60,276 nt of DNA from a virus (lineage: Duplodnaviria > Caudoviricetes): the IMG/VR virus record IMGVR_UViG_3300036859_000206, positions 1-60,276 of that record, one strand, 5' to 3'. Below, piece after piece: positions 1 to 31,409 of this stretch. The notes below the pieces were generated by a model. The model did no database searches and had not been told where the DNA came from. It saw only the letters and a list, made by a program, of their open reading frames with translations. Position 1 is the stretch's first letter. Each line of letters begins with the position of its first letter. Position numbers and translations under genes: made by a program.

Positions 1-89
1 TCGACCAACGCCAGCAGCTCCTTGCGATCTTTCTGGACGTCGCTCAGGATGAACTTGCTGTCCGGGAACACGCGACCGACGAGACCTCG
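1..89. repeat. Terminal direct overlap, identical to 60188-60276 (assembly circularisation)
   Basis: First 89 nt (tcgaccaacg...gagacctcg) equal the last 89 nt of the window. Confidence 0.97.
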
Positions 90-239
90 TGCAATTCGCG
101 CCTGTAGCGCCTCGATGTAGGCGAGCACGTCGTCTACTTGCAGGTCAGACAGCCAGCCGTCCTCGATCAGAGCGTTCTCGTGATGCTCGCGCACCTTGTC
201 GAGCCCGTCGTCATCGTCGCCCCATGCTTCGTAGCTCAT
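1..239 (-). CDS. Hypothetical protein, 92 aa, spanning the circular junction (239->1 joined to 60187->60148)
   Basis: Manual translation MSYEAWGDDDDGLDKVREHHENALIEDGWLSDLQVDDVLAYIEALQARIARGLVGRVF...VVLED*; ATG overlaps an upstream TGA; absent from the ORF track because it crosses the end. Confidence 0.75.
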   Translation of the reverse strand, partial: MSYEAWGDDDDGLDKVREHHENALIEDGWLSDLQVDDVLAYIEALQARIARGLVGRVFPDSKFILSDVQKDRKELLALV

Positions 240-1740: not shown

Positions 1741-1961
1741 GGATTCGCCTCCTTATGAGACTGGCACACGGCCTTCAACGCGGCTATGGCATCCGCCGCC
1801 TGATCCAGCGATCCATCGGTTGTGCGAGTGGCGAGCGCTATGGGCGGGCGGAGGCAGCGCCACGCGGTGTACACAGCCGAGCTGCCGACGTTCGCGCGGC
1901 TGATCGAGTAACGGCCGGTCTCATCTTCCACGTGGAGTTTGGAGCGCTTGAGCCAGTTCAT
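1737..1961 (-). CDS. Hypothetical protein
   Basis: MNWLKRSK...; start/stop overlaps with both neighbours. Confidence 0.6.
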   Translation of the reverse strand: MNWLKRSKLHVEDETGRYSISRANVGSSAVYTAWRCLRPPIALATRTTDGSLDQAADAIAALKAVCQSHKEANP

Positions 1962-2671
1962 GGCGCGTTGAACGCCCACAGAACTTCCTTCGATCCGCGC
2001 CCGTTCACGCCCGGTTTGAATGTGGCGAACGTCTCGAACGGCGCCCAAGTCGCGCCTTCGTTCTCGCAGACCATGACTTGCCCTCGACGTAGGCCGCACC
2101 AATCTCGCAACGCAGAGCGATCGACTTTGGAATGCACGTAGTAGCGCCCGGCCGCGTTATCGTACGGCGGATCGATGAACCACATCGCCGCCATATCGGG
2201 CGCCGCCGTGTACTCGTCTTCGATGATGCGCCAGTGCCTAATCGCGCCAACTTGCGATGCGACACGCTCGCGCATGCTCGGCGTCCAGCCCTCGAACTGC
2301 CTATGCAGAGCGCGCAGCTTTCGCCGGCCGCTTGAGAGCGTTCGGCGCGGCGTCGAGCACGCGGAATTCATGCTGAACCCAACAAGATAGCGTGCGCCGA
2401 GCGGCACCCAATCCGGCAGTTCGTCAACGTCGTCTACTTCAGGTATGCGCCTGATCTCGTCCGGCGTGGCGCAGATCAGGAACCGCCACATCTCACAGAT
2501 CGTCGGATATTTCTCGACGAGGATGATGCGGCGATCCGGATAACGCAGGCTGTAGCCAGCAGCGCCAGCGAACGGTTCAATGATTGTATCGTAGGCCGGC
2601 GCAGGATAACGCGGAGCCGCGCGCCACTTGCCGCCGTAGTATCGCCAGAACGGCTTCAGGCTCACGCTCAC
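1958..2671 (-). CDS. DNA adenine methyltransferase (D12/Dam-like)
   Basis: YYGGKW, EPFAGAAG (SAM binding) and IDPPY (catalytic); GTG start overlapping upstream TGA. Confidence 0.85.
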   Translation of the reverse strand: MSVSLKPFWRYYGGKWRAAPRYPAPAYDTIIEPFAGAAGYSLRYPDRRIILVEKYPTICEMWRFLICATPDEIRRIPEVDDVDELPDWVPLGARYLVGFSMNSACSTPRRTLSSGRRKLRALHRQFEGWTPSMRERVASQVGAIRHWRIIEDEYTAAPDMAAMWFIDPPYDNAAGRYYVHSKVDRSALRDWCGLRRGQVMVCENEGATWAPFETFATFKPGVNGRGSKEVLWAFNAP

Positions 2672-2916
2672 CCCGCATCCCTCGCCGCCCGAATCGCGTT
2701 GCAGAACACGTCCGCGATCTCGGGCGCGCGAATACGAGCCGGAATCTCCAGCATATCGACGCCGTGCCGATGGAACCAAGTCGCCGAATACCTGCCGTCG
2801 CCGACCGTGAACGTGAATCCTTGCGGGAATCGCTCGCGGTAGCCCGCCTCGAATACCACCTCGCCGATCGCGACGGAATCTTTGTCGACGACGGTGACGG
2901 CTACGGGCTCGTTCAT
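2668..2916 (-). CDS. Hypothetical protein
   Basis: ATGA-coupled ORF in the operon. Confidence 0.55.
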   Translation of the reverse strand: MNEPVAVTVVDKDSVAIGEVVFEAGYRERFPQGFTFTVGDGRYSATWFHRHGVDMLEIPARIRAPEIADVFCNAIRAARDAG

Positions 2917-3131
2917 CGCTCGTCCTCCCAATGCCCGCCATTCTTATCGCGAATGCGCAGCTCCTTCTCGCATCCCGCGATGATCGCCTTGTTGTTGCCC
3001 TGCCACTGGCCCGGTTTCTCGGACAGATTGCCGGCGAGCCATCGAAGGTATCCACTCGGACACTCCTCGATACTCTTCCCGCGATGCTTGCCGAACGGGA
3101 TCACGATCGTGACGTCTGCTTGGTGGGTCAT
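2913..3131 (-). CDS. DUF3820/QSregVF_b-like small protein
   Basis: IPFGKHRGKSIEECPSGYLRW signature. Confidence 0.8.
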   Translation of the reverse strand: MTHQADVTIVIPFGKHRGKSIEECPSGYLRWLAGNLSEKPGQWQGNNKAIIAGCEKELRIRDKNGGHWEDER

Positions 3132-5674: not shown

Positions 5675-5899
5675 ATGAGCATCTACCGCGTCGATTTCGC
5701 CGTCACCTTCCCGCTCACGCCAGACACTGCGGAGACGCGCCACTACTTCCGTCTCGTCCAGGCCAAGACCAAGGCCGGCGCCATCGCGCACGTGGCGAAG
5801 AAATTGCTGCACGCGAGACTCGCTACGTTCGAGGATGGACGCGAGGGCGAGCGGAGTGGGGTGCGGGTGGAGGATGCTGGCGAGGAGGAAGCCGCATGA
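5675..5899 (+). CDS. Hypothetical protein
   Basis: Coupled ORF, high GC3. Confidence 0.65.
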   Translation: MSIYRVDFAVTFPLTPDTAETRHYFRLVQAKTKAGAIAHVAKKLLHARLATFEDGREGERSGVRVEDAGEEEAA

Positions 5900-6492
5900 G
5901 CATGGAGGCATTCACCGAGTTTGCGAAAATCGCGCGACTGTCGCGCGACATCGTGATAACGGAGAAGATCGACGGCACGAACGCGCAGGTTTACATACGC
6001 GAACTGCCTGACGACGAGGTGATGCCGACCGATACGCCGATCGTCGCTGTGCGTGGCAAGCTGCTGCTCTACGCCGGATCTCGTAGCCGTTGGATCACGC
6101 CAACCGAAGACAACTTCGGATTCGCTGCGTTTGTTCGCGACTGCGCCGACGAATTGTCCATGCTCGGACCCGGCCGTCATTACGGCGAATGGTGGGGAGC
6201 CGGCATCCAGCGTCGCTACGGGCTCAGCGAGAAGCGGTTCAGTCTGTTCAACACGCACCGATGGGCCATGGGCGCTCCTGATTGCTGCCGCGTCGTTCCA
6301 GTGTTGTACAGAGGCCCATTCTCCGAGGCAAAGATCACGGAGGCGCTTGCGCAGCTATCCGAGAATGGTTCGTGCGCCGCGCCAGGCTTCATGAAGCCGG
6401 AAGGCATCATCATCTACCACACGGCGGCCAACATGTACTTCAAGAAAACGATCTTGAAGGACGACGAGCCGAAATCGGTGTCGAAGCCATGA
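5896..6492 (+). CDS. RNA ligase-like nucleotidyltransferase (Rnl2-type adenylation domain)
   Basis: FAKIARL...TEKIDGTN (KxDG motif I), GSRSR, YGEWWG, EGII, FKK. Confidence 0.85.
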   Translation: MSMEAFTEFAKIARLSRDIVITEKIDGTNAQVYIRELPDDEVMPTDTPIVAVRGKLLLYAGSRSRWITPTEDNFGFAAFVRDCADELSMLGPGRHYGEWWGAGIQRRYGLSEKRFSLFNTHRWAMGAPDCCRVVPVLYRGPFSEAKITEALAQLSENGSCAAPGFMKPEGIIIYHTAANMYFKKTILKDDEPKSVSKP

Positions 6493-7481
6493 TCGACCGC
6501 CCCGGCCTCCTTTCCATCAAGCCAGCCGGCTACCCCACGCCAGCCGATTGGGAGTCCGCGTGGCACGCCGTACGCGCGCGCGTCGTGACGTCAACCGACT
6601 GCGCCGCGCTATTCGGCCTGAGCCCCTACGCGACGGCCTTCGAGCTGTGGCATATCAAGGCCGGGAATTTCCTGCCGGAGTTCGAGGAGAATGAGCGCAC
6701 TGGATGGGGCAAGGCGCTTCAAGATGCCATCGCGCACAAGCTAGCCGATGACAACAGATGGCTAGTCTATCCGTTCGACCAATTCATGTACTCCGACGCC
6801 GAACGCATCGGATCATCGTTCGATTTCCGCGGCATGTTCACATCGCCGACTGACGCCCCGGCCGTCCATTTCATCCTCGAAATCAAAAACGTCGACAGCC
6901 TCGCCTTCAAGCGCGGTTGGCAGGAAACAGACTTCGGCCTCGAGGCCCCGGCGCACATCGAGCTCCAGGTGCAGCACCAGATGGAGGTCTCCGGCATCGA
7001 CCTCGCGTACATCGGCGCACTCGTCGGTGGCAATACCGTCAAACTCCTGCGCCGCGAGCGTGATCGTGCTGTCGGCCGTGCGATCCGCGCCAAGGTCGCA
7101 GAGTTCTGGGCGAGCATCGATGCGGGGACGCCACCACCGCCGCTCATGCCGATCGACGCGCAGATCGTTTGCGCGCTCCACGGGTACTCTGACGGCTCGG
7201 TCATCAACGCCGATAAGGAGACCGCCGAACTGATGGCTCAGTACGATGCACGACGCGCTGAGGCCAAGGCTGCCGAGACCGCGAGCGAGGTGCTCAAGGC
7301 GCAGATTCTCGAACGCGTGGGACCGGCCGCGAAGGTGCTGGCCGATGGCTACACGTTGTCCGCGACTCAGGTCAAGGAGACGCCGCCGACCGTCATCACA
7401 GAGGCGATGGTGGGGAAGACGTACGGGGGCAGGAAGGGTTATCGGTTGTTCCGTGTCACTCATAAGGAAGCAGCAGAATGA
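6489..7481 (+). CDS. YqaJ-like viral recombinase exonuclease
   Basis: WHAVRARVVTSTDCAALFGLSPYATAFELW, SSFD, LEIKN, QVQHQM. Confidence 0.92.
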   Translation: MIDRPGLLSIKPAGYPTPADWESAWHAVRARVVTSTDCAALFGLSPYATAFELWHIKAGNFLPEFEENERTGWGKALQDAIAHKLADDNRWLVYPFDQFMYSDAERIGSSFDFRGMFTSPTDAPAVHFILEIKNVDSLAFKRGWQETDFGLEAPAHIELQVQHQMEVSGIDLAYIGALVGGNTVKLLRRERDRAVGRAIRAKVAEFWASIDAGTPPPPLMPIDAQIVCALHGYSDGSVINADKETAELMAQYDARRAEAKAAETASEVLKAQILERVGPAAKVLADGYTLSATQVKETPPTVITEAMVGKTYGGRKGYRLFRVTHKEAAE

Positions 7482-8308
7482 GCACTCAAGTCGCCACCGC
7501 AGGATTCGAGCGCATCGATGTCGCGTTCGCCGATCCGCGCATGCGGACCCAGCTCGCGCAAGCGATGGGCGTCAAGGTCGAGGATCCGACGCTGGATCGG
7601 TTCACGCGCGTCGTGCTGCGGGCGGTGCAGGAAAACCCTGCGTTGCTCGCGCCGTCCGTGGATCGGACCAGCATGTTCCTCGCCTGCCAGCGCGCGGCGC
7701 AGGACAAGCTCTTGCCAGATGGCCGCGATGGAAGTCTCGTGCTCTACGGCAACAAGGTGCAGTGGATGCCACAAATCCACGGCATCAGAAAGCGCGCCGC
7801 CGAGTACGGCTATTCGATCGACGCCCAGGTCGTGCACGAGAACGACGAGTTCGAGCAGATTCAGGGCGACGATCCGAAGATCGTTCATCGCGCGCCGGGG
7901 TTGGGCAAGGACCGCGGCCAGATGATCGGTGCCTACGCGATCTTCCGCGAGATCAAGACCGGCACGATCGTCCACCGCGAGGTCATGACCGCAGACCAGA
8001 TCGAATCCGTGCGCGCGTGCAGCCGCTCGAAGGACAAGGGGCCGTGGCTGTCGTTCCCGTCCGAGATGTGGCGCAAGACGGTCGCCAAGCGCGGGTTCAA
8101 GTCGGTGCCGATCTACGCGGAGGAGTTTCAGGAGATTCTCCGGCGCGGGGACGATGACTACGAATTCGTTGGGTCTGCGGTCACGGCGGGGCCGGCGGCG
8201 AAACCGACACGGCCGGCTGCCCTCGCTGCTGTCGCTGCGCAGGCGCCGGATGAGATCGAGCCGGAGCCGCCTAGCGACGTCGTGGACGATGATCCGAATT
8301 CGTTTTGA
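7478..8308 (+). CDS. recT: RecT-family ssDNA annealing protein
   Basis: Directly after YqaJ; AAQDKLLPDG, VVHENDEF, GAYA, PW...EMWRKTVAKR; acidic tail. Confidence 0.92.
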   Translation: MSTQVATAGFERIDVAFADPRMRTQLAQAMGVKVEDPTLDRFTRVVLRAVQENPALLAPSVDRTSMFLACQRAAQDKLLPDGRDGSLVLYGNKVQWMPQIHGIRKRAAEYGYSIDAQVVHENDEFEQIQGDDPKIVHRAPGLGKDRGQMIGAYAIFREIKTGTIVHREVMTADQIESVRACSRSKDKGPWLSFPSEMWRKTVAKRGFKSVPIYAEEFQEILRRGDDDYEFVGSAVTAGPAAKPTRPAALAAVAAQAPDEIEPEPPSDVVDDDPNSF

Positions 8309-8921: not shown

Positions 8922-9204
8922 GGCAGATTGGGTTGTTCGAATACGTGGACTGGCAGCCGGTGGGAGTCCGGCGAACCCTGAACGCGGTGTCCGAGTCATG
9001 CTGCAATACATCAACTCGCCGGCGCTAGAACAACAACTTCTCGCGCTCGCCAACGGCAAGCCAGGCGAACGTTACTGCATCGACGGATGCTGGTTTGAGG
9101 TCAATCCTGACGGCGAGACGTGTCGCATCATTGGGTCGCTAGGGTTTCTCTTACACGGCGAACCCGCTCCATCATCTCCGGACGATCCTCCACCGGAATG
9201 TTAG
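8911..9204 (+). CDS. Hypothetical protein (converges on and overlaps the giant gene)
   Basis: GGAGG RBS; 3' end overlaps 9128..14893. Confidence 0.45.
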   Translation: MRREADWVVRIRGLAAGGSPANPERGVRVMLQYINSPALEQQLLALANGKPGERYCIDGCWFEVNPDGETCRIIGSLGFLLHGEPAPSSPDDPPPEC

Positions 9205-12200
9205 GCAGCGCCGAGCGCACTGATCGCAGCAAGGCTGGTCCGAGCTTGTACTGCTTGCGCTCTTGCTCGCTGGCCATGTCCCACGCCTTGATCTTCTGGT
9301 TCAACGGAAGACGAGCAAAGCGGATCGCAGGAACATCTTGATGGGCCTCTGTCCGCAGGTTTTTCACCTGACGTGGCGACAATCCATTGAGGTCTGGAAC
9401 CTCTCCAGCCTTCACCTTCGCCAATTCTTCCTTGAAGCGGTCAGACCGCTCGGCCATCTCCGCGGTACGAGCGCCTTGCGGAAGGGTGTCGAAGTAGCGC
9501 TCAGCGACGTAATCCTGGAAGGCCGTGCGCGACACGTTAGCCGGCGCCGGCGTAATCCCAACGAACGGTGCGACCTTGGCGGCCAACCCTTCGCCAGCCT
9601 TGGCGTTCTTCGCCGCACCCTGCACTGAGTACGGAAGGAACGACTTCGCCATGTACGTGAGGAATTGCTGCACCTCGCGCGGAATTGGATCTTCCGGATT
9701 GAAAATCTGGTTCCCGTAGAAGTCCTTGTTCGACAGCATTTCCGACATCATGGAGAGCGTCGGGTGAAGTTTGTGCTTTAGCGTCTCCACCGGATGCCGC
9801 GAGAACTGCCACTCGTCCTTGACGTATGACGGGAAGGACACACGCTCAGGTGAGCCGTCAGGATTGGTTCGCCCGGTCTTGGGGAAGAAATAATCCTTTG
9901 GCTCCTCTGGGCCTTTGCCAGTGAGAAGCTGCTGTGTCATCGCGCCCATGATGGCCACGGTCGCGTTCAGCGTGATGAGATACGACAGCCGGTTCGACAT
10001 GCGCGCCATGCGCTCATTCGTGACTGTTCCTGCCTTGCCCAAAGGACCGAGATATTCCTCCGGTTTTGCGATACCTTTGACGTCGCTGAGTGAGCCGAAA
10101 ATCAGGCGCAGCGTACCAGCGTTCCAGCCGACCGACTGCACTGACGTATGCAGTGCATCGCGCACCGTCCGATGCCAGAACAGGTTGTCATACGTGAACT
10201 GCCCCAACCGATCGTCGACGTCGGCATTCACCTTGGCGGCGATCTGTCGCATCACATCCGGATTCAGCGCATCGACCGTGCCAGCGTAGTCGCTGGCCTC
10301 CTCGCCGAGCTTCGGCGCGAGCCGTTCGAGTTCGAACTTTGCCAGCATCACGCGAGCCATCATCTTCTGCGCCGGGACCAACCGATGCGCGATCAGCCGC
10401 GTGGTCGACTCGATCAGCGCCGGGAGCGCCTTGCGCGTGGCTGCCGCGGTATCGCCCTGCCGGTACGCGCGGATCGCGGACGTGAAGTCGTTGTTGTACT
10501 CGGTCGACGACATGCGCGCTCTGGCGCCACCTTGGTCGAGGAAGTGGAAGATCGCCTGCATTTGCGGATCGCTGGCTTCCTCGCCGAGATACTGCTTGAG
10601 CAGCGACGCTCCCTTGCCCTTGCCGGCGATCGCCTGCAACGTGTGCGGGATCGCGAGCGCGGCGTCGGCGAACGACTTCATCGACGAGCCGAGATCACCC
10701 TTCGCGAGATAGCGCCAGCCGAGATCTAGGTTCGAGGCCGCCGAGTCGAGCGTGGTCATGCCCGCGTGGAACGCCGAGAGGCCGAGCCGCGCGCTCAGCA
10801 TCATGTTCTGGAACCAGCGGAACGAACGCCACGCCTGGAACTGCCCGAGGCCCTGCGCGAGATGGTTGTTCAGGTCGCGCGCCACGAGGTCCGGTGCGAG
10901 CACGCCGCGGAAGGTCGGATCGTTGACGCGCGAGTAGCCTTGAGGGATCCGCGCGTCGGGGTCGTCCTTGCGGAGCCAGCCGCGCTGCTCGAGCTCGTTG
11001 CGCCAGCGAAGTGAGGCGATCAGCTTCTCGCCGGACTGGTAGCGCGCCATGAAGGCGTCCATCGGGTTCAGCGACGCCGGTTCGAGCCCGGCTTTGATGC
11101 CTTCCTCGTAGTCCTCGTAGAACCTTTGCCTGGTGAACGCCTTGTCGCCAGCGAGGGGGCGCTTGCCGGCGATAGTCTCGAACACGGAGGCCACGCGCTC
11201 GACGGGATCCTTCCACAGCTGGTGCCAGTAGTTCTCGCGCAGGTTCGGCAGATACTTGCCGGCCGGATCCTGCTTGCGGAGATCGTCGTACTGACGGTCG
11301 AGCAAACGGTCGCCGAGATCGATCGCCTGACGAGATACTGGATCGGTGACGGCCTCCTTGCCGCCGCGCTGGAACGCGATGATGTCCTTGTAGGCCGCGA
11401 GCGCCAAACCCTGCCCTTCGAGCCCCTGCTTGCGGAGCTCGCCGACGCGCTTGTCCAGGTGGGTGCGGAAGTCGTCGACCGCAGAGTCCGCCTTCGCGAC
11501 GTTGCGCGCTTGCTCCGCCATCGTGGCCCGGCCGATACCGCGGCCAATCTCGCGCTGGCGCTCGGCGGTCACGGCATCGATCGCGGCAGCGGCCTGGCGC
11601 ACGTCGGCGACGCTGTACAGCGGGCCAACGCGATCCACGCCAGCCATGCTGAGCTTGCTGCCATCGGCGCGCTTCACATGCCGCGCCGCTCGAGCGACCA
11701 GCGCACGAGCCTCAGCCTGCGTGAACTGGATATCCAGCCCCAGCGTCTCGCGCGCGAACCGACGCATCGCGGCGACCACGCGATCGAGCACTGAGGCGTC
11801 GACACCGCGCTCGGCCATGACCGCGAGCGCCTCGCGCGCGAACAGCGCATCGTTGGCGCCGCGATAGCGCTCACTGGCTGAGGCTACGGCGTCGCGGATG
11901 GCGGGTGCGAGTCGTTCCGGGTGCGTGCGCCAGTCGGCGAGCTGGGTCTCGATCGCGGCCCAGGTCTTCTCGCCCGTGATCGCCTCGACCCCGAAGTGGC
12001 CGACTTGCTCGTGCGCGATGATGGACTGTGCGTGGCGCGCGTCGCGAATGTTGTCGCTGACGAGATAGACCTTGCCGTTGTCGAGGTCGGCGTAGCCAGC
12101 GGCGTCAGCGCGGTGCGGCGTGCCGTCAGGTAGCGCGGGAAGATCAGCGGCGGACTTGACGACGACGGTCTCGAGCGCGCCTGGGCGGGCGGCAGCGTAT

Positions 12201-14893
12201 TTCTCGATCGCTGCGTGGTGCTCTGGGGGGCGCTCGGCCTTTGGCTGTTCGCCGGCGTGGTACAGCGGCTCGCCCTTGGCCTTCGCGAACGCAGCCTGCA
12301 TCGCTGTCGGCGGCGGCTCCTCGACACCGGCTGCCTTGCCCTTCGCGATCTCGGTAGCAACGCGCTCGTCCTGCGCGGCTGACTCCAGCGCAGCGAACTG
12401 CTCCGGCGTCTTCGCGCGGTCGGCCTTCTCCTGCGCCGCGAGCTCGGCCTGCCGCTTCTCGAATGCAGCGTCGGTCTCGCCCTTCTTGCGGACGGCCGCG
12501 ACTTGCTTCTCGAAAACTTTGTTGGCGAGGCCGGTGATCTCGGGGTCGGCTGGCTTGGCCGGCGCCGGCGCGGTTACGCGTGCTTCTGGGGCTGCGGCTT
12601 GGACTGGACGGGACTCTGCTCGTCGTTCACCACTTCCAGCTTCGACCCCGGCGGCAGCGTTGCCGCCCAATCCCCGAACGTCATCCCCTGCATGTCCCGA
12701 ACGGGGGTTGACCCCGAGCTTGGCGGCTTTGTTGGCCTTGGCTGCGGCGTTGGCTTCGGGGACGTCTTTGCCGATTCCATAGCTCAGTCCTAGGTTGGTG
12801 ACTTGCTCCACGCGCCCATCGGGCAGCGTGACCTTGATCTTGAGGCTCCCAATTGCAGTTTGGAGCGCCTTTCCGGCCTTTTCAAGCTCAACCGGATCAG
12901 CGGCATTCGTAGCGTGAACGATCTCGTCGCCACCGATCCCGTAGACCTTGCCGGGCAGATGCTCAGCGGCCACCGACATGATGCGGTGGAGCACCTGATC
13001 GCCGCCCTCCTGCCCGAGTCGGTCGTTGACGTTCTTGAAGCGGTCCAAGTCCATGAACAGCATCGGCCCAGAGACATTGCCGCTCTCGACGTCCTTCTTC
13101 AGGCCGCGCAGGTTCCGCATACCATCGATCGGCTCGCCCATCACTTGATGGGTCGTGAGCGCGTTCTCGATGGCCGCTGCGTGGGCCTCCGGCGTGATCG
13201 GCTCTACCGGCCGCGCCCCGACCTCCGGCTGCGCTCCGGCCCGCTCACCGGCGCCTGCCCCGGCTTGCGCTGGCTGTTGTAGATCTTGGCGACCGACGTC
13301 TTGGCCTGCTTCGCTGGGACGCCCTTGGACTCCAGCTTGTCGCGGATTTTCTCGTACTTGATCGATGGCATTCGTGGTCTCCTTCGTGATGGACGGAGAT
13401 GCCGGCGGCTCATTCGCCGGCACCCCCTCGCCTGTGGTCAGCCCTTCAGCCCCACGTACGGGCGCTGGCTCCGTTTGGGCGGCGCCCTGCGTCCATTCGC
13501 CGGTGCCTTGGACTTTTTCGCCTTCACGGATCACCTCCTTCGGTTGTGCGGCGCCCGGCTCGCTGGCTGGCGTGACCTTGGCCGCGTTGGGATTACGCAA
13601 CACCCACTGATCCTTGCCGACGCTGACGACATCGTAGCCGGGGTTCTTCGCTGCGGCCTTGTTCGCGGCTTCGACGTTCCTGAACGGGTTTCCGTTCTTG
13701 TTCAGGATGTCGTTCTGGCTGGCGAGTAGTTCGTCGGCGTCGCGGCGGAGCGCTTCGTAGGAGTTCGGACCGCCAGGCTCAGCCTTCGCGTGGAGCGCTT
13801 CCTGCGTGACCGCCGCGACGTTCGCCGCCTCGGACATGGAGCCTGGAGTCGCCTCGGGATGTGGAACATTAGCCGGAGGTTTCACAGGCGCGGCGCGTCC
13901 GTGGAACAGTGAACCGAACCCGCCGGCGAGCCCGCCGAACGCCGCGCCGGCCGCTGCTGCGCCGCCAGATCCTTCACCGATGTCGCGCGTCTCGCCGGTC
14001 GCCCTGTTGGCCGCCGCGATCTCAGCTGCGTTCTGGCCGACGCCGACGCCAGCGTTCAGCGCCGCATCGGTCATGCCGCCGGCCAGCGCGCGCGGAAGGA
14101 GGCCCTCGCCGACGACCTTCGCCAGCGCCGATTGGACAGGGCGAGCGAATGGTAGGCCGAGAACCATACCGCCGACGCCGCCAGCGATCGACCCTGGAAC
14201 GAACGACCCCTCACCCGCTGCCTTGGCCACGGTCTCGCGAGCGGCGCCTGGAGAGGCTCCTGCTGCGATCTCGGCGGTATAGGCCGGAACCTTCTGGAGC
14301 TCGTCGAACGGCATCGAGCGGATTCGCTCGCCCTCGTGCTCGAGCGCGGCACCGCCGCCGGTTGCGGCCCCGACCGCGCCCATCGTCGCCAGCTGGGTCG
14401 GGACAGACGCGCCGCGCGTTAGGACTGCGGCGCCAATGAACGGGGCCGCGCCGCCAAGAATCTGAGCCGCCTGACCCGCCGCACCCCGCAACGACGGATC
14501 GCCGCGGAAGTGGAGCGACTCGCCCTTGAGGATGTTGCCCTCAACGCCGGTATCGGCAGTGGCCTGAGAGAACTCCGGGCTGACCGACTCGGCGAGTCCG
14601 GCACCCTTGGCCTGGAGCCAGTCTGCCGGCGTGTTCAGGAAGTTGCCGGCGCGCAGGCCCACCGCGGCGGCGATCGGTGCGGCGACCATCTTGGACGCTT
14701 CGCCGAAACCGCGCAGCGCCGAGCCGGTCCCGCTGACGAGCGCTGATCCGGCAGTCTTGGCTACGTCAGCGAGGTCGTCGGTCACGCCGCGTGGCTGGTC
14801 TGAGATGACGGGACCACTGTACGGCTCCAGCTTAGGCCGCGCGAACGTCGCGGTGTCCGGCACCACTTCACCGTCGTATGGCTTAAATTCCAT
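9128..14893 (-). CDS. Giant polyvalent putative ejection/internal virion protein (1921 aa) with GGDEF-like and HExxGH metallopeptidase-like domains
   Basis: Last gene of the virion operon; N-terminal Gly/Ala hydrophobic helices; FMDLDRFKNVNDRLGQEGGDQVL...YGIGGDEI...LSYGIG; IIAHEQVGHFGV. Confidence 0.85.
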   Translation of the reverse strand: MEFKPYDGEVVPDTATFARPKLEPYSGPVISDQPRGVTDDLADVAKTAGSALVSGTGSALRGFGEASKMVAAPIAAAVGLRAGNFLNTPADWLQAKGAGLAESVSPEFSQATADTGVEGNILKGESLHFRGDPSLRGAAGQAAQILGGAAPFIGAAVLTRGASVPTQLATMGAVGAATGGGAALEHEGERIRSMPFDELQKVPAYTAEIAAGASPGAARETVAKAAGEGSFVPGSIAGGVGGMVLGLPFARPVQSALAKVVGEGLLPRALAGGMTDAALNAGVGVGQNAAEIAAANRATGETRDIGEGSGGAAAAGAAFGGLAGGFGSLFHGRAAPVKPPANVPHPEATPGSMSEAANVAAVTQEALHAKAEPGGPNSYEALRRDADELLASQNDILNKNGNPFRNVEAANKAAAKNPGYDVVSVGKDQWVLRNPNAAKVTPASEPGAAQPKEVIREGEKVQGTGEWTQGAAQTEPAPVRGAEGLTTGEGVPANEPPASPSITKETTNAIDQVRENPRQAGVQGRPSEAGQDVGRQDLQQPAQAGAGAGERAGAQPEVGARPVEPITPEAHAAAIENALTTHQVMGEPIDGMRNLRGLKKDVESGNVSGPMLFMDLDRFKNVNDRLGQEGGDQVLHRIMSVAAEHLPGKVYGIGGDEIVHATNAADPVELEKAGKALQTAIGSLKIKVTLPDGRVEQVTNLGLSYGIGKDVPEANAAAKANKAAKLGVNPRSGHAGDDVRGLGGNAAAGVEAGSGERRAESRPVQAAAPEARVTAPAPAKPADPEITGLANKVFEKQVAAVRKKGETDAAFEKRQAELAAQEKADRAKTPEQFAALESAAQDERVATEIAKGKAAGVEEPPPTAMQAAFAKAKGEPLYHAGEQPKAERPPEHHAAIEKYAAARPGALETVVVKSAADLPALPDGTPHRADAAGYADLDNGKVYLVSDNIRDARHAQSIIAHEQVGHFGVEAITGEKTWAAIETQLADWRTHPERLAPAIRDAVASASERYRGANDALFAREALAVMAERGVDASVLDRVVAAMRRFARETLGLDIQFTQAEARALVARAARHVKRADGSKLSMAGVDRVGPLYSVADVRQAAAAIDAVTAERQREIGRGIGRATMAEQARNVAKADSAVDDFRTHLDKRVGELRKQGLEGQGLALAAYKDIIAFQRGGKEAVTDPVSRQAIDLGDRLLDRQYDDLRKQDPAGKYLPNLRENYWHQLWKDPVERVASVFETIAGKRPLAGDKAFTRQRFYEDYEEGIKAGLEPASLNPMDAFMARYQSGEKLIASLRWRNELEQRGWLRKDDPDARIPQGYSRVNDPTFRGVLAPDLVARDLNNHLAQGLGQFQAWRSFRWFQNMMLSARLGLSAFHAGMTTLDSAASNLDLGWRYLAKGDLGSSMKSFADAALAIPHTLQAIAGKGKGASLLKQYLGEEASDPQMQAIFHFLDQGGARARMSSTEYNNDFTSAIRAYRQGDTAAATRKALPALIESTTRLIAHRLVPAQKMMARVMLAKFELERLAPKLGEEASDYAGTVDALNPDVMRQIAAKVNADVDDRLGQFTYDNLFWHRTVRDALHTSVQSVGWNAGTLRLIFGSLSDVKGIAKPEEYLGPLGKAGTVTNERMARMSNRLSYLITLNATVAIMGAMTQQLLTGKGPEEPKDYFFPKTGRTNPDGSPERVSFPSYVKDEWQFSRHPVETLKHKLHPTLSMMSEMLSNKDFYGNQIFNPEDPIPREVQQFLTYMAKSFLPYSVQGAAKNAKAGEGLAAKVAPFVGITPAPANVSRTAFQDYVAERYFDTLPQGARTAEMAERSDRFKEELAKVKAGEVPDLNGLSPRQVKNLRTEAHQDVPAIRFARLPLNQKIKAWDMASEQERKQYKLGPALLRSVRSALPNIPVEDRPEMMERVRRVRETLATQ
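12574..12780 (-). CDS. Possible nested +1-frame ORF directly after the GGDEF domain
   Basis: Same alternative frame as the other two nested ORFs; protein-like MQGMTFGDWAATLPPGSKLEVV; weak RBS. Confidence 0.3.
   Translation of the reverse strand: MESAKTSPKPTPQPRPTKPPSSGSTPVRDMQGMTFGDWAATLPPGSKLEVVNDEQSPVQSKPQPQKHA
13204..13371 (-). CDS. Nested +1-frame gene (55 aa, MPSIKYEKIRDKLESKG...AKIYNS) inside the giant gene
   Basis: AAGGAG 7 nt upstream of ATG; near-uniform GC3 in this frame while the host frame reads like an off-frame translation. Confidence 0.65.
   Translation of the reverse strand: MPSIKYEKIRDKLESKGVPAKQAKTSVAKIYNSQRKPGQAPVSGPERSRRSGRGR
13438..13527 (-). CDS. Nested +1-frame basic micro-ORF (29 aa, MKAKKSKAPANGRRAPPKRSQRPYVGLKG)
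   Basis: GTG immediately after AAGGAGGTGATCC, the full complement of the 16S rRNA 3' end. Confidence 0.5.
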   Translation of the reverse strand: MKAKKSKAPANGRRAPPKRSQRPYVGLKG

Positions 14894-23034: not shown

Positions 23035-23181
23035 TCACCACTTGTTGATAGGGCAATGCAGTACGCGCACACGCGTTCGCAGATTGATCGAACAACCGCA
23101 CTTCAGACACACGTTCACCGCGCCGCGCCGCAGGAACTCACAGCTCTCGCAGATCGCCAGCCGTCGCTCGCGCTCGGTCAC
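23035..23181 (-). CDS. Second Cys-rich DUF6171-like protein (48 aa)
   Basis: GTGA overlap; ERRLAICESCE...CLKCGC......CPINKW. Confidence 0.7.
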   Translation of the reverse strand: MTERERRLAICESCEFLRRGAVNVCLKCGCSINLRTRVRVLHCPINKW

Positions 23182-24491
23182 GGGATTTCCACTCCGTTGC
23201 GGTAGATCGTCGCCACGGCCGAATCGCTGGCCTTTAGACTGGCCTGCGTGCCAGCGTTGTTGAGCGTGGCGATCAGCTGCTTGATGCCGCGGTTCTCGCG
23301 GTAGAGCGCCGCGCCGCGCTCGTACTCCGGCAACGCCACGCGGTTCTCGGTGAGCGGCTGGATCGAGCCGCGCATCCCGACAACGAACGATCCGTTGGTG
23401 GCGACCCACACCGGGTACTCCTCAGCGGTCGCTTTCAGGAACGCCGGCAGGGACGAACCGCGCACGTAGCGCAGCGTCCCGGCGACGGCGCCATGCGGGT
23501 AGGCGACCACGCGCTGCCATGTCTTGGGCGAGGCTCCGGAGAGGTAGTAGGTCTGGTGGCCGGCAGCGACGTAGAGACCGGCATCGGCGCCTATTCCGAT
23601 CGGCGCGAGCATCGTGCCGCGGTCATGGAAGCGCAGGTAGTTCTCGAACGGCGTGGTCAGCCCAGGCAGCAGCGGGTGCGACCAGTACAACACCCGGTCT
23701 ACCATCACCAGCGACATGCCGTTGAACCACGCGACGCATTGGCCGGCCGGCATCGGCTCCATGAACTGCGTGCCGAGAGGCGCGGTGACATCGGTACGGC
23801 CGATGATGTAGCTGGTCACGCCGACCGGCAGATCATGCGCCCAGAACAACACGTCACCGTTGGCCTTCGAGCGGTAGATGCGAACCGTGTCCACGGCGGC
23901 GTCGACCGGCTGCGGGATGTACGTAAGCTGGATGCCTTTGCCATCCGTGATGTCGACCAGCGCTGCTAGGGTCGATCCGCCTTCCTCCCCGGCCCGCAGG
24001 TACGTGATTGCGACCTGATAGGTGCCGCCGTCAAGGCCGCCGCTCGCGTACGCTGCAAGGGCGGGCACACCGCTTGGCGACTCGACGCCCCAGGTGGAGA
24101 CCGCGCCGGTGTAGCTCACGCGGCCGGTCAGCTGGCTGTTACTCCAGTAGATCATGCGGTCGGAGGCGGTGTAGGTCAGCGGCAGACCGGCGTTGAGCCC
24201 GGACTTGAGCGTAGTCGGCGCCATCTCGCCCGTGACCGACTTCAGCGCCCCGTTGTCGACGTAGAGCATGAATGGACAGTCGGGCGCGCGGTACAGCGAG
24301 TGCGAGCGCGTGGTCGTCAGCGACTTCGTATACCCGTCGCGACGCCGCAGCTTGCCCGTGTCCGGATACAGGTCGCAGTCTACGATCAAGCGCGCGGACC
24401 CGGCCTTGAGAGCGAACTCCGGCGTGATGTTGTCGACGCCGAGCGGCCAACCCTTGAGTGCGACCAGCGACTTGTCCTGGACGCCGGCCAT
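23178..24491 (-). CDS. Tail nozzle/stabilisation-type protein
   Basis: Follows the adaptor; GWPLGVDN...GKLRRRDG N-terminus and beta-rich body as in podovirus nozzle proteins. Confidence 0.65.
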   Translation of the reverse strand: MAGVQDKSLVALKGWPLGVDNITPEFALKAGSARLIVDCDLYPDTGKLRRRDGYTKSLTTTRSHSLYRAPDCPFMLYVDNGALKSVTGEMAPTTLKSGLNAGLPLTYTASDRMIYWSNSQLTGRVSYTGAVSTWGVESPSGVPALAAYASGGLDGGTYQVAITYLRAGEEGGSTLAALVDITDGKGIQLTYIPQPVDAAVDTVRIYRSKANGDVLFWAHDLPVGVTSYIIGRTDVTAPLGTQFMEPMPAGQCVAWFNGMSLVMVDRVLYWSHPLLPGLTTPFENYLRFHDRGTMLAPIGIGADAGLYVAAGHQTYYLSGASPKTWQRVVAYPHGAVAGTLRYVRGSSLPAFLKATAEEYPVWVATNGSFVVGMRGSIQPLTENRVALPEYERGAALYRENRGIKQLIATLNNAGTQASLKASDSAVATIYRNGVEIP

Positions 24492-25174
24492 CAGATGAAC
24501 CTCGGGATCGAGCCGCGGATCGCCGCGGTGGCCCATAGCTTGATCTCGTGCGCGGACGGACGCTCGCCGAAATACGCGGTGAACTTCGCATCAGCCACCG
24601 CGGCGCGCGCAGGGTCGTGCGTTTCGGCGTCCTTGACGTTGTAGGCCAAGTGCTCGGCCCAATCGACTAGGTGCCGGTGACCGCCGTTGTCGACGATGAC
24701 CGGCTCGCCGTCAGGATTCGACTCGCGCAGGAGTTCGTTGTCGAGCGGCGCGCGCCACGCCGCGATGACCAGCGTGCCATCTTCGTCCGGCAGTGGGCTG
24801 AACGCGACGTTGCCGTCCTGGTAGTCCATCACGAGGTACTTCGGCGTCCCCGTGTTGGTGTCGACATCCCAGCTCTCGCGGATGCGCAGCAGACGCTTGG
24901 TGGCGATGCGTTCGAGCGTGCTGTTCTGGCCGTCGATCTTCGCCGTGCGGACGATCAAGGTCTTCGGGTGCAGCTTGACCAGCCGATCGCCAGCCTCGTA
25001 CTCGAGCCGGCACATCGGGTCGTACTGCGACTCCATCAGCAGCCGCGAGCGGAGGCATGCCTCGGTCACGGCCTCGTTCAAGTAGCCGGTGACGGTCTCA
25101 TCCGACCACAGCGGCGGGTCGGCCCCATCGTCCGTGTTGATCCTGAACAGAGCGATGAGGTCGTCCAGCGTCAT
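24491..25174 (-). CDS. Head-tail adaptor protein
   Basis: MTLDDLI..FR...DD...LWSD.....YLNEA..EAC.R N-terminus. Confidence 0.75.
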   Translation of the reverse strand: MTLDDLIALFRINTDDGADPPLWSDETVTGYLNEAVTEACLRSRLLMESQYDPMCRLEYEAGDRLVKLHPKTLIVRTAKIDGQNSTLERIATKRLLRIRESWDVDTNTGTPKYLVMDYQDGNVAFSPLPDEDGTLVIAAWRAPLDNELLRESNPDGEPVIVDNGGHRHLVDWAEHLAYNVKDAETHDPARAAVADAKFTAYFGERPSAHEIKLWATAAIRGSIPRFI

Positions 25175-26092: not shown

Positions 26093-27199
26093 TTAGGCGT
26101 TCGGGTCGACTGCGGCCGTGTCGAGCGAAACGACACCGAAGTCGGCGCTGTTGAACTGCACCTTTTTGTCGCCGCGGATGCACGACAGGCCGATGATGAG
26201 GCGGTTCTCCAGGTCGACCAGCTTCTCGACCCACTTCATGCGCAGGCCGTTGCCCGGCGAGCCGAATGCCGTGACGAGCGCCTGCCGCCCGAGAAACAGC
26301 GCGCGCGCGGCCTTGACGTTGCTGCCGGAGCCGTAGTCGCTGAACCGGATCACGCGCGGGTGGGCCTGCAAGACCGTGTTGCCGATCATGCCAAGACCGC
26401 CCTTGAAGATCGGGTTCTTCTGGCCTTCTGCCGCCGCCGCCGCCTTCTGGATTTCCATCCAGCCGGAGGTGCCGGCGTCGAGGCGGAGGTCGTACTCCTG
26501 GAACGTGTGCATGACGACCACGTAGCGCTCCTCGCCATCCCAGATCAGCGGGCGAATCTGCGGCGTGCCGCTGCCATCGCCGCCAAGTGTTGCGGCCTTG
26601 GTATTGGCCTTCTCGATGACCTGACGGGTCATCTTGCCGGAGCTCGTCAGCGTCGCCTTGGTCGTGCCGTCGCCGTAGATGATGTGGCCAGAGTCCGGCG
26701 CATTCAGTGCGTTGTTCGCGTAGCCGGTGAACCCGAGCGGGCAGATGAAGCCGGTGTTGATGCCGCGGGCGCCGGAGCCGTAGATGAAGTGGTACTCGTC
26801 ATCCAGGCGCATCCAGTAGTCGGCGGCGAGTTCCTTCGCGCGCATACGCAGATCGTGCAGCGTGCGCTTGCGGGTCATCGCGCCGCCGGTGTCGACCGAG
26901 TAGCGGACCTGATCGATGCTGATCGAGTCGGACTTGGTGTTGAGCGCCTCCTCGTTGCCCTCGCGCACGATGTCGCCGTAGGTCGGCTCACCGTTGAGCT
27001 GGAGGAAGAGATCGAAGTGGATCGTGTCGCCAGCGTCGTTTTCCAGTTCGGTGAGAACCTGGATCGGGGCCATGGCCTGTTTGCCCTTGGCCATCATGCG
27101 GGACGACCACCAGCCAGCGCGGGCGGTGTCGTAGAACAGCGCGGCGGACCAGCGCTTTACTGCTTTCGCGTCGTTGAGGCCGACGATCGTCGTTGCCAT
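26093..27199 (-). CDS. Major capsid protein (N4-gp56/DUF4043 type)
   Basis: AVKRWSAAL, ELENDAGDTI.FDL, EGNEEAL, IDQVR, NPIFKGGLG, ALFLGRQA, DFGVVSLD. Confidence 0.93.
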   Translation of the reverse strand: MATTIVGLNDAKAVKRWSAALFYDTARAGWWSSRMMAKGKQAMAPIQVLTELENDAGDTIHFDLFLQLNGEPTYGDIVREGNEEALNTKSDSISIDQVRYSVDTGGAMTRKRTLHDLRMRAKELAADYWMRLDDEYHFIYGSGARGINTGFICPLGFTGYANNALNAPDSGHIIYGDGTTKATLTSSGKMTRQVIEKANTKAATLGGDGSGTPQIRPLIWDGEERYVVVMHTFQEYDLRLDAGTSGWMEIQKAAAAAEGQKNPIFKGGLGMIGNTVLQAHPRVIRFSDYGSGSNVKAARALFLGRQALVTAFGSPGNGLRMKWVEKLVDLENRLIIGLSCIRGDKKVQFNSADFGVVSLDTAAVDPNA

Positions 27200-28798: not shown

Positions 28799-28981
28799 TC
28801 ACGTTGTACCTCCAGAGAGGTTGGCGGTGGCGTCGCGATATTCGCGTACACGATCCGCGTAGTAACGAATCTTAGCGTCGTAGTCTGTATGCTGCGGCGG
28901 CTTCGGTTCAGGCAGAAACGGGAGCGCAAGGCCGCCCGTCGCGACGACCAACGCTAGCTCGAACACCTCTCGTCGGTTCAT
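28799..28981 (-). CDS. Small protein with twin-arginine-like N-terminus
   Basis: MNRREVF followed by a hydrophobic stretch; GGAGG RBS. Confidence 0.55.
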   Translation of the reverse strand: MNRREVFELALVVATGGLALPFLPEPKPPQHTDYDAKIRYYADRVREYRDATANLSGGTT

Positions 28982-31215
28982 GGCCCCTCCTCCGGCGGCT
29001 GCTGCGCCAGCGCTGGCGGCGAGTTGTACGTCTGCGGCGGCTGCGGGCGCGCGAACAGCATGTCGGCCGTGGGCGCCAGCGGAATCGCGTTGTGGATCGT
29101 GCCAGCGAGATTGAATGCGAGCTGCTTGGCGTCGAGCGTGTGCTCGTGCTCCTTGGCCAAGAACTCCGCCGCGCGCGCCTTCGCCAGATCAGCATCGGCC
29201 GCGAGCTTCGCGTCATGCAAATCCTTGGTCTTCTGCGCTTCGGCCTGCTGCGCCTGCTGCGCGGCCTGCTGCTGAGCGGCGGCCTGCGGATCGTTCTCGG
29301 CCGCAGCGCCGTTGAGGCGACGGATGCGCGCGATGAGCTCGTCCTTCTTCGGAAGGTCGGTCAGGTCGATCGCGAGATCGAGCAATTGGATCTGGACTTC
29401 CGGCGGCAACGTGCGGATGGTCTCGAGGAGCATCTCGGCCATCGCCATCCGCATCGTCTCGCGGTAGTCCTGCTGATCGACAACGAAATCGGCCTCGCTC
29501 TCGGTGACGTCGTTGACGAACGTGATCTGGCCGGTGTCAGGGTCGATCTGCGGCTTGTTGATCGAGAGGAATACGAGCTGGCCCTTTTCCGCGCCTTCGA
29601 TTCGAATCGTCATAGGGAGCGTGAGGTACTGCTCGGTGTTCGATAGCGTCTTCTGGCCCGAGAGCTTGATCGACAGCCGGTACAGGTCGAACACCTCTGC
29701 GGTGCCGACCGCGCCCTGCTGCTGCTTGGCGAGGATCGCGCGTCCGGAGATCGCGTTCGAGTTGAGCCCCTGGTTGTCGCGCGTAACCCCGGAACCTTCG
29801 TTGATGTGGATCTTCGCCTCGTTCATCAGCTGCACATGTGCGAGGCTGACGTCGAGGTTGTTCTCCCACATGATGCGCTTGTCTTTCAGCGCCCCGGTCG
29901 CGACCGGGATGATCCCGTTCGGCCGGTTGACCTGATCCTCGAAGACATCCTGATCGTCCTCGTCGACCGCGCCGTTCTCGACCCAGACCTTGTTCGCGGA
30001 GGCGGCTAGCAGCGCCTTCGAGCGGCGGACGTTGTACTCCTCCTGCGGATCGCGCAGGCCGCGCACGTAGCCATATGGCTGCCCGTCGCGATGACGACGG
30101 AACGCCCAGACCGGCGTGAACGGGAACCGCTTGTGCTTGTACGGCGACTTCTTCAGCGAGCAGAGAAATCCTGGGTGAAACACCGCCATCCACATCTGGT
30201 CGGCCACCGCGTCAATTAGCCCGATCTTATCGGTCTTGACCAGCGCGGCCAGCACCGGATCGCCCTCGACGTACGCGGTATGGTTGAGCTCCGTGTACTC
30301 CTCGGTCAGCGCCATGATCTTCTTGCTGGCGACCGGGCGGCGGAACCAGATTTCGCACAGGCGCACGCGGTAGCGCGAGCCGCGGCGCCACAGGCCAGAG
30401 CTCGAATATCGGATGATCGACGCGCTCTCATCGTTACCGCGGTTCGAACCCCAGAGCACGGACGGGATGTCCCAGCCGTCCTCGTCGCCAAACTCCCACT
30501 CGGGCTCGGTATAGCCGGCGGCAGCACGACGCAGTTCGTCGGCGCGCTCCGGGTACATCGCGATGGCGTATTCGAAGTCGACCCAGCGGTGGCGTACGAG
30601 GTACCGGCAGTCGGTGAGATCGTTGGCCCGCGAATACGGGTCCATGTGGATCTCTTTCCAGTCCTGGTGCCGATACCCGATCGGCAGATCCTCGCCATCG
30701 GTGCGCGCGTACTCCTCCAGCCAGCCGAGCCCAGAGATCACGGCATCCTTGAACGCCTGCGAGCGGTGCCAACCGGAGTTGGTGACGTCAGAGACGAATT
30801 TCATCAGGTCTGTCTTGATCTCCGCGAGCTTGGTGTCCTCCTCACCGCGCGGCAGGATGCGCCAGTCGATGCGCGTGCGCCGCTCCGTGCCGGTGATCCA
30901 GTCGACGACCGGGCGGATCAGGTTGAACACCAACGGGGCCTGCCCGCGCTCCATCAGGGTCGCGCGCTTCTCGGTGTCCCATTGGTCTGAATCGTAGAAG
31001 TCGTGGTCGATGTAGCGCTCGCGGCGGTTCATCGCTTCGAGATCGCGCGCCTCGCGCCACCACTCTTCGAGCCGGCGCAGGAGCTTGATGTTGTCTTCGC
31101 TGTCGAGGTTGATCCGCTTCGGTGCAGCGCGCAGGACTGGCAGCGGCGGTCCACCGATCCGGCCGCTCGACTCGCCGGCTCTCGTGGTGCGGATGTTGTC
31201 GAAGACGGCGGCCAC
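28978..31215 (-). CDS. Portal protein (P22-like)
   Basis: DFYDSDQW...RGQAPLVFNLI.P.VDWITGTE, FPFTPVW, PYGYVRGLRDPQ, ISGRAILAKQQQG; GTG start overlapping upstream TAG. Confidence 0.93.
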   Translation of the reverse strand: MAAVFDNIRTTRAGESSGRIGGPPLPVLRAAPKRINLDSEDNIKLLRRLEEWWREARDLEAMNRRERYIDHDFYDSDQWDTEKRATLMERGQAPLVFNLIRPVVDWITGTERRTRIDWRILPRGEEDTKLAEIKTDLMKFVSDVTNSGWHRSQAFKDAVISGLGWLEEYARTDGEDLPIGYRHQDWKEIHMDPYSRANDLTDCRYLVRHRWVDFEYAIAMYPERADELRRAAAGYTEPEWEFGDEDGWDIPSVLWGSNRGNDESASIIRYSSSGLWRRGSRYRVRLCEIWFRRPVASKKIMALTEEYTELNHTAYVEGDPVLAALVKTDKIGLIDAVADQMWMAVFHPGFLCSLKKSPYKHKRFPFTPVWAFRRHRDGQPYGYVRGLRDPQEEYNVRRSKALLAASANKVWVENGAVDEDDQDVFEDQVNRPNGIIPVATGALKDKRIMWENNLDVSLAHVQLMNEAKIHINEGSGVTRDNQGLNSNAISGRAILAKQQQGAVGTAEVFDLYRLSIKLSGQKTLSNTEQYLTLPMTIRIEGAEKGQLVFLSINKPQIDPDTGQITFVNDVTESEADFVVDQQDYRETMRMAMAEMLLETIRTLPPEVQIQLLDLAIDLTDLPKKDELIARIRRLNGAAAENDPQAAAQQQAAQQAQQAEAQKTKDLHDAKLAADADLAKARAAEFLAKEHEHTLDAKQLAFNLAGTIHNAIPLAPTADMLFARPQPPQTYNSPPALAQQPPEEGP

Positions 31216-31409
31216 TAGTCGGCAGCCTTGGCACGCTCGCGGCGGAGTGCCGCTGTCGACCGTTTGTTGCGGGCCGCCTTGAACTGCACGCGGCCCTTGT
31301 AGACGCGGAAATCCATGCTGTGCACGAGACCACAATCGCAGCACGCCATCTTGTAGCCACACTTCACCGGCTGCACCCACTCGCCTTCTGCTGGCCGTGT
31401 GTACCGCAT
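31215..31409 (-). CDS. Small Zn-binding phage protein (ACCDCGLVH)
   Basis: EWVQP...YKMACCDCGLVH.MDFR motif. Confidence 0.7.
   Translation of the reverse strand: MRYTRPAEGEWVQPVKCGYKMACCDCGLVHSMDFRVYKGRVQFKAARNKRSTAALRRERAKAAD

Follow-up and report, generated by a model that had tools for sequence, protein, structure and literature searches.

What would a phage gain from a diguanylate cyclase-type domain built into one of its giant late proteins? The question is raised by IMG/VR virus record IMGVR_UViG_3300036859_000206 (Duplodnaviria; Caudoviricetes), the whole 60,276 bp of which, with direct terminal repeats and an estimated completeness of 100%, formed the window analyzed here. Judging from its sequence, the window represents an uncultured podophage in full, a genome of 60.3 kb with Bcep22-like head genes and F116-like tail and internal genes. 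A gene on its minus strand (9128..14893) encodes a giant protein of 1921 residues (P0001), for which the original prediction had proposed a GGDEF-type diguanylate cyclase domain at 12720-13150 (residues 582-725), delivered by the virion at the moment of infection. The open reading frame (ORF) exists without stops across this interval, the GC content of its three codon positions (0.70/0.49/0.78) is of the coding type, and the peptides quoted in that proposal (PIDGMRNLRG, FMDLDRFKNVNDRLGQEGGDQVL, YGIGGDEI, and LSYGIG) are all present in its translation. The gene is also the last of a minus-strand late/virion operon, as had been claimed: those for terminase, portal, major head, and tail proteins lie upstream of it on that strand, and the genes beyond it are on the opposite one. 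Overall, the observation behind the original prediction was confirmed and its interpretation was partly supported. That a GGDEF domain resides here in a polyvalent protein is close to certain, and the whole chain taken loosely, in which the polyvalent protein is virion associated and its cyclase active, seems to us evenly balanced.

The domain and a preceding helix occupy residues 562-738 (12680..13210) according to Pfam, phmmer searches of the PDB, AlphaFold2 (AF2), Foldseek, and VIA-align, and the stretch from about residue 582 to 732 is a true GGDEF domain that passes the Pfam cutoff and has a predicted palm-like fold. The PF00990 profile matched residues 608-703 far better than chance would allow, with 33.0 bits (E 6.2e-8) over its positions 32-129 of 161 where 23.8 bits is the gathering score, and a six-frame search scored GGDEF at 37.6 bits. 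At E<=1, phmmer listed 44 PDB matches, all of which were GGDEF or diguanylate cyclase proteins by molecule name or had several domains and were matched at a GGDEF-like stretch; TpbB ranked first (E 1.4e-6). When the domain was searched against a representative library of 1.84 billion proteins, 5243 were found at E<=1e-3, and the best matches were mostly very long proteins. The AF2 model, for which an alignment of 32 rows was used, was confident, with a mean predicted local distance difference test score (pLDDT) of 92.9 and a predicted template modeling score (pTM) of 0.86. Foldseek matched it to 92 PDB chains at E<=1e-3, all of those listed being GGDEF proteins, and VIA-align superposed 139 of its residues on 4zmm_A, the GGDEF domain of Dcsbis, with a Z score of 17.1 and a root mean square deviation of 1.8 Å; the best 50 VIA-align matches were all GGDEF domains. 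The profile search and the structure prediction therefore both bear out the GGDEF claim. Across the whole of P0001, Pfam at E<=1 found nothing beyond GGDEF except two insignificant matches, in agreement with the claim that no sensor domain is present.

To place this domain among its relatives, a FastTree phylogeny was computed from 153 domain sequences, which were all the matches of usable length and, being the top of the match list, are not an unbiased sample. P0001 fell into a clade of 66 sequences (support, 0.951) that includes 61 of the 63 matches aligned as a single stretch and 42 proteins of at least 1400 residues; the tree did not resolve the position of P0001 within it. The motif pattern found nothing in six clade proteins and seven others, leaving 57 and 83 motifs, respectively. 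Those of the clade read GGDEF (32), SGDEF (20), or rarer forms, and an RxxD at the place of the I-site occurred in 1 of 57, versus 19 of the 83 other GGDEF matches. All 20 long clade members that were scanned pass the Pfam GGDEF cutoff, none carries a sensor domain detectable by Pfam, and nine carry Pfam domains found only in polyvalent proteins, namely, LPD38 (in eight), ART-PolyVal, LPD37, LPD1, LPD3, LPD5, and PBECR5. By sequence, then, the P0001 domain belongs to an I-site-free GGDEF clade of its own that is specific to giant proteins. Since this clade is nearly without RxxD and its scanned members lack sensors, the missing feedback and sensory input are a clade-wide property and not one of this gene alone.

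Are the residues needed for catalysis in place? The 63 matches that each cover the full-length domain in a single stretch were aligned, and P0001 keeps D615 (63/63 in the clade), D617 (60/63), K620 (63/63), N623 (63/63), D632 (61/63), G655 (63/63), D656 (61/63), E657 (63/63), S704 (58/63), and K722 (58/63). D615 lies in MDLDRFK, aligned with the Asp of DsDrFK in TpbB and DosC, and we take it to be the metal-binding Asp that closes the first strand, equivalent to PleD D327. In the Hypr GGDEFs, which make cyclic GMP-AMP (cGAMP), a Ser replaces the guanine-specifying Asp; P0001 has no Ser at this position, which is D632. N623 and D632 align with PleD N335 and D344, the two residues that set GTP specificity, and D344 also contacts the substrate together with F330, F331, R366, and K442 (PMC7186502). 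The retention of N623 and D632 points to GTP as the substrate and hence to cyclic di-GMP (c-di-GMP) as the product, which disfavors other products. The signature motif itself reads GGDEI (residues 654-658; positions 12920-12934), with the Phe-to-Ile change at the fifth position that had been noted; this form is unique to P0001 among the 57 clade motifs and occurs in 2 of the 83 other GGDEF matches. No RxxD was found at the canonical I-site place, five residues before the motif, where residues 645-648 read HLPG, again as originally stated. The further statement that the catalytic residues are intact held for GGDE, for the Asp that binds metal, and for the Asn and Asp that read guanine, and it is weakened by Gly652, two residues before the GG pair at the position of PleD R366, which had been missed.

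On these residues and the predicted fold, we consider it somewhat more probable than otherwise that the domain is a constitutive, GTP-specific cyclase that would, on pairing with a second copy, make c-di-GMP from two GTP molecules without product inhibition. Several observations weigh against this assignment. The Gly at position 652 is found in P0001 only, the clade otherwise having His (42), Arg (19), or Ser (1) there (n = 63), and TpbB has Arg at the aligned place. P0001 departs from the clade consensus at six further positions (H628Q, R653I, F658I, E/D715N, R725K, and G729N). Its domain scores 33 bits against Pfam, compared to 68 bits for P0003, the closest GGDEF-bearing relative, and the two proteins share 33% identity over the GGDEF domain versus 50% over their C-terminal modules, which indicates that the domain is diverging faster than the scaffold that carries it. 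Such divergence is compatible with a relaxed or altered function, as far as sequences can tell. In another locus of the family (L014:9941-10486), the motif reads SGDKF, in which Lys replaces the latter of the two acidic residues, and Glu/Asn stands in place of DxD, so that this cargo domain has probably lost its activity in some of its copies. Finally, diguanylate cyclases act as dimers, and a dimerizing element was not identified in the P0001 domain. Because of the Gly at the R366 position, P0001 may be a weaker enzyme than its clade cousins, and Gly652 and the fast divergence lowered our confidence in an active cyclase. Taken further, the same observations, along with a low Pfam score over profile positions 32-129 only, would suit a weak or dead GGDEF that binds GTP or c-di-GMP or serves as a structural module. 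We find this unlikely, given that the metal and base residues D615, N623, D632, D656, and E657 are all kept, that the fold is predicted with confidence and lies within 1.8 Å of a solved domain of the active type, and that little or no variation is seen at the key positions even among very divergent phages, an argument for selection on catalysis.

The protein around the domain has the makings of a modular carrier. Its layout was drawn from blastp comparisons with 18 relatives of similar length (1056-3362 residues). Residues 1-345 (13859..14893) form a Gly/Ala-rich N-terminal region (A, 20%; G, 17%) whose composition and hydropathy reveal weakly hydrophobic glycine-rich stretches and which resembles the N termini of P0019 and of the giant protein of locus L007. 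Its similarity to residues 142-339 of the giant protein of Pseudomonas phage 8P is weak (28% identity; E 0.004; one comparison). A low-complexity linker rich in A, G, E, P, and Q (residues 346-561; 13211..13858), with no Pfam match, leads to the GGDEF domain, and a second linker (residues 739-889; 12227..12679; A, 25%; E, 13%; P, 9%; K, 9%), with no family match, leads away from it. These are followed by a predicted zincin-like metallopeptidase module (residues 890-1085; 11639..12226) and a C-terminal module (residues 1096-1918; 9140..11608) recognized by blastp and hidden Markov model (HMM) matches to giant phage proteins. All of these intervals are on the minus strand. When the whole of P0001 was compared by tblastn with 50,697 phage records, only two were matched, both at the peptidase region, and no cultured relative was found.

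The peptidase module is marked by HEQVGH (residues 961-966; positions 11996-12013), an HEXXXH motif, with an invariant Glu downstream at residue 1021. It is common to P0002, P0003, P0015, P0018, and the two phage records, and in an alignment of seven homologous modules, H72, E73, H77, G79, G85, and E132 are invariant. Neither Pfam at E<=1 nor a profile of the seven modules run against PDB sequences, in which nothing fell below E 0.48, matched this region to a family or structure. An HEXXXH variant has been described for the zincin metallopeptidases (MPTases) of polyvalent proteins in the survey by Iyer, Burroughs, Anand, de Souza, and Aravind (2017, J Bacteriol; PMC5512222), and the module, with its downstream Glu, is predicted to be of this kind. 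Across the peptidase motif, the giant gene also has an open +1 frame of 229 codons, where a 158-residue ORF with a TTG start is listed (11884-12360, minus strand). In four of five homologous modules (L087, L008, L093, and L029), the equivalent frame runs open through the motif for 92-194 codons, and in the fifth (L097) it does so for 18. Since about 38% of the giant gene sits in +1 runs of at least 92 codons anyway, the open frame is only suggestive of an overprinted small gene.

The C-terminal module, about 800 residues long, shares 50-53% identity with P0002-P0005 by blastp and is recognizable in P0006-P0014, P0016, and P0017. The middle regions vary: ART-PolyVal and a LAGLIDADG insert in P0002, LPD37 in P0004, and InPase, LPD3, SNF2-type helicase, ddrB-ParB, or MuF_C domains elsewhere; LPD38 and LPD39 are also found among proteins with the module. 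A GGDEF domain is present in 4 of 19 full-length proteins (P0001, P0003, P0008, and P0019). In IMG/VR, 110 stretches encode relatives of the module, 80 loci of which were kept and examined together with two contigs of metagenome-assembled genomes (MAGs). In 73 of these 82 loci, the module was in the longest plus-strand ORF, always at its C terminus, and GGDEF was found in 6 of the 73, a lower bound given that 22 of these ORFs are truncated by the 5′ end of the available sequence. The module is presumed to be an assembly or ejection scaffold, and the differing middle regions on a common scaffold amount, at the sequence level, to the exchange of cargo by which phage-type polyvalent proteins are defined. 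P0001, with unrelated enzymatic domains in a large protein encoded among late/virion genes, reads as one of them. Its cargo is minimal, comprising one GGDEF domain, then the HEXXXH peptidase module, and nothing else that was recognized.

A pyrophosphatase neighbor of the domain was considered separately. InPase (PF18823, inorganic pyrophosphatase) adjoins GGDEF in the five relatives that have both (viral loci L009, L054, and L058 and proteins P0019 and P0136), in all five cases within about 150 residues, and would suit a reaction that releases pyrophosphate. It was, however, no commoner in the GGDEF-bearing giants scanned (5/32) than in relatives without GGDEF (3/15) and was therefore not counted as evidence for coupling. 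No InPase remnant was detected in P0001 with a profile made from five relatives.

Whether P0001 travels in the particle was judged from its place in the genome. The genes leading to it encode proteins of 860, 409, 637, and 515 residues, followed by the 1921-residue giant, and the order in Pseudomonas phage 8P is 860, 385, 631, and 653 residues and a giant of 5145, followed by holin and lysozyme genes. LKA5 has the same gene order as 8P, with a giant of 3863 residues, and both giants carry LPD23, LPD3, SNF2, and methylase domains. In the comparison with these two phages, the 637-residue protein showed 28-30% identity. More widely, 42 phage records encode proteins that share 28-31% identity with it, and 37 of these are from Pseudomonas phages, including the F116-like LKA5 and H66. 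The virion module of Bcep22 ends with the gene for gp75 (4602 residues; SLT, methylase, SNF2, LPD3, and LPD38). Its homologue JC1 gp69, a DarB-like protein of 4515 residues, was detected by mass spectrometry in CsCl-purified virions, and among the giants compared (Bcep22, JC1, 8P, and LKA5), the published JC1 account provides such evidence for gp69 only (PMC9144972).

Homology gives less comfort, and here the results count against carriage. The C-terminal module could not be linked to such giants: the best blastp E value against Bcep22 gp75 was 0.07, and the HMM of the module found nothing significant in Bcep22 gp75, 8P_023, or LKA5_059. Two hhalign comparisons gave probabilities of 5.6% and, with ten LPD38-bearing tails, 8.9% over 23 columns, the similarity being limited to a short N-x-D-x-x-G-x-x-I motif within the LPD38 region, and the module had no Pfam match at E<=1; a feature search of the ESM Atlas placed LPD38-bearing viral clusters among the nearest (12 of 30 matches; 0.97), which is a lead only. 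When 16 window proteins were compared with the late region of Bcep22, only the major head protein (51%), the portal (37%), and the terminase (37%) matched. Hints about the host are limited to two short MAG contigs with relatives, found in a scan of genome contigs and labeled Proteobacteria bacterium and Dokdonella sp. With no homology to giants proven in virions, the case for P0001 comes from gene position and synteny, by analogy with which we regard its packaging in the virion as likely.

The giant gene is expressed late, and its enzyme could equally act in the cell that produces the phage, a further consideration against delivery. An active cyclase working there could freeze motility, change the envelope, or exclude superinfection, with injection secondary. 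The gene does lie in the late operon with those for terminase, portal, head, and tail; a folded cytoplasmic copy without an I-site would be active before packaging; and it is by inference that P0001 is placed in the particle. We nonetheless think this improbable, since the scaffold relatives carry cargo of the injected type (ART-PolyVal, ddrB-ParB, MuF_C, and SNF2-methylase), giants so positioned have proved to be part of the virion when tested, as reported for JC1 (PMC9144972), and there is no evident need to fuse a late-acting enzyme into a 1921-residue protein beside a processing peptidase.

The reading that we prefer, delivery of the cyclase with the particle, would unfold as follows. On a scaffold made of the Gly/Ala-rich N terminus and the 800-residue C-terminal module, different phages have inserted different enzyme cargo, here the GGDEF domain and the predicted peptidase. 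This domain combines the modeled GGDEF fold, the metal-binding D615, the GG-D-E hairpin, and the guanine-selecting N623 and D632 with the lack of both RxxD and a sensor. After the precedent of the DarB-like giants, P0001 would be packaged in the virion. It would then enter the cell with the DNA, perhaps freed by the adjoining peptidase, and raise c-di-GMP in the minutes before phage translation, a step that we place slightly on the doubtful side; peptidase release of polyvalent domains was itself proposed by Iyer et al. (PMC5512222). Raised c-di-GMP would render the host sessile and poorly motile with an altered surface, for instance, blocking superinfection or retuning physiology. In its fullest form, the proposal holds that a few molecules of a capsid-carried, feedback-free, peptidase-freed cyclase would flood the new cell with c-di-GMP within minutes, without transcription or translation. 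P0001 would thereby be a delivered second-messenger synthase for host takeover or superinfection exclusion, occupying the place in the scaffold where sister phages carry ADP-ribosyltransferases, pyrophosphatases, or nucleases. We offer this form tentatively and would sooner doubt than assert it.

The suggestion that the domain jams nucleotide-signaled immunity found no support: a product such as cGAMP, c-di-AMP, or a linear dinucleotide disturbing the cyclic oligonucleotide-based antiphage signaling system (CBASS) or Panoptes-type immunity is very improbable, for even though the GGDEF-like palm enzyme mCpol makes 2′,3′-c-di-AMP (PMC12657218) and interference with host nucleotide responses was suggested by Iyer et al. 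(PMC5512222), the guanine-specifying residues are those of GTP-to-c-di-GMP enzymes in P0001 and nearly throughout its clade, and the sequence and fold neighbors listed are all c-di-GMP synthases.

The likely hosts themselves appear to use c-di-GMP heavily, as each of the two MAGs with relatives' contigs has 20 strong GGDEF matches, at about 60-174 bits. Set against these scores, the 33 bits of the phage domain argue that it is not a recent capture from such hosts.

The remainder of the genome provides the setting. A single long late operon on the minus strand encodes an endolysin (42685-43293), a tail fiber-like protein (38280-40652), the large terminase (32106-33746), the portal (28978-31380), the major head protein (26093-27199), and a head-closure-like protein (23178-24536), together with several further structural proteins. 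Portals of Skulduggery, JC1, Bcep22, PBC5, and Ralstonia phages share 37-38% identity with the one encoded here, the matches covering about 75% of it. Between the tail fiber-like genes and the terminase region, on the same strand, are adjoining genes for a trypsin-like serine peptidase (34615-35529; PF00089, E 3.4e-6) and a GDSL lipase/acylhydrolase (35508-36101; PF13472, E 8.8e-11), which may be virion-associated enzymes that degrade the envelope or capsule. Past the late operon, the next genes (5.9-8.7 kb) include a plus-strand block (5896-8308) that runs toward the giant gene, meeting it at its 3′ end, and encodes an RNA-ligase-like protein (phrog_548), a RecE-like exonuclease (phrog_434), and a RecT-like annealing protein (phrog_148). 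One Mom-like DNA-modification gene and three DNA-methyltransferase-like genes are found at 58689-59153 (minus strand), 53642-54277 (minus strand), 51337-51801 (plus strand), and 1958-3055 (minus strand), a heavy investment in DNA modification for a 60-kb genome, alongside the polyvalent protein. The sole tRNA, tRNA-Gly with anticodon TCC (46954-47025, minus strand), was called by ARAGORN and Rfam (54.3 bits). A 504-residue DUF6745 protein (56039-57553, minus strand; E 1.5e-30) is encoded next to VapE-like helicase/primase and DnaG-type zinc-finger primase genes. No integrase was found among the ORFs scanned, which were part of the total.

How does P0001 compare with systems already described? 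The novelty claimed for a GGDEF domain in polyvalent proteins and for its two proposed roles was overstated. The 2017 survey already lists GGDEF among polyvalent-protein domains as "not very widespread," gives as an example the Acetonema longum prophage protein WP_004096050.1, and suggests interference with host nucleotide responses or signaling as its role (PMC5512222). The architecture had thus been described computationally, and P0001 adds one further member. As in the polyvalent GGDEFs treated there, a GGDEF domain and a zincin MPTase (a predicted one in P0001) are joined in a giant late-gene protein with predicted delivery alongside the DNA (PMC5512222); P0001 differs in its minimal cargo, in a C-terminal module that the Pfam LPD models do not recognize, in its GGDEI motif, and in the Gly at the R366 place. 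Specific to this case are therefore the minimal cargo, which makes P0001 a simple test case, the I-site-free GGDEF clade of its own, and the unusual Gly at the R366 position. The giants of Bcep22 (gp75), JC1 (gp69), 8P, and LKA5 likewise stand last in the virion module after tail and internal genes and have a polyvalent composition. Unlike P0001, they carry SLT, methylase, SNF2, LPD3, LPD23, and LPD38 and no GGDEF, with no significant similarity beyond the short motif.

With the canonical cyclases PleD, WspR, DgcZ, TpbB/YfiN, and Dcsbis, the P0001 domain shares the fold (Z 15-17) and the metal, base, and hairpin residues, and its N-terminal helix (model range 1..165) superposes on the stalk helices of DgcB and PleD. 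It differs from them in having no receiver or sensor, no RxxD, Gly for R366, and no terminal strand past the last helix, at an identity of 19-27%. GGDEF folds encoded by other phages include Gp350 of Bacillus phage G, a "diguanylate cyclase" of Bacillus phage SP-15, and a GGDEF protein of Bordetella phage CN1, and eight viral models in BFVD match the fold at E<=1e-3; the proteins of phage G, SP-15, and CN1 are small and separate (152-254 residues), whereas the P0001 domain sits inside a giant late-operon protein. A search of the literature found no experimental test of a virion GGDEF, judging from titles and abstracts. If the reading holds, a small unregulated cyclase of this sort would also be a clean tool.

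The closest parallels in principle are enzymes injected with phage DNA, such as the T4 ADP-ribosyltransferase Alt, the N4 virion RNA polymerase, and P1 DarB (PMC5512222). In each of them, as proposed for P0001, a packaged enzyme acts before phage gene expression; injection is established for these three and deduced for P0001, and none of them makes a second messenger. To our knowledge, no other phage alters a host second messenger at entry, before its own genes are expressed. A virion-delivered c-di-GMP synthase, if P0001 proves to be one, would be the first such case and would set it apart from Alt, the N4 polymerase, and DarB.

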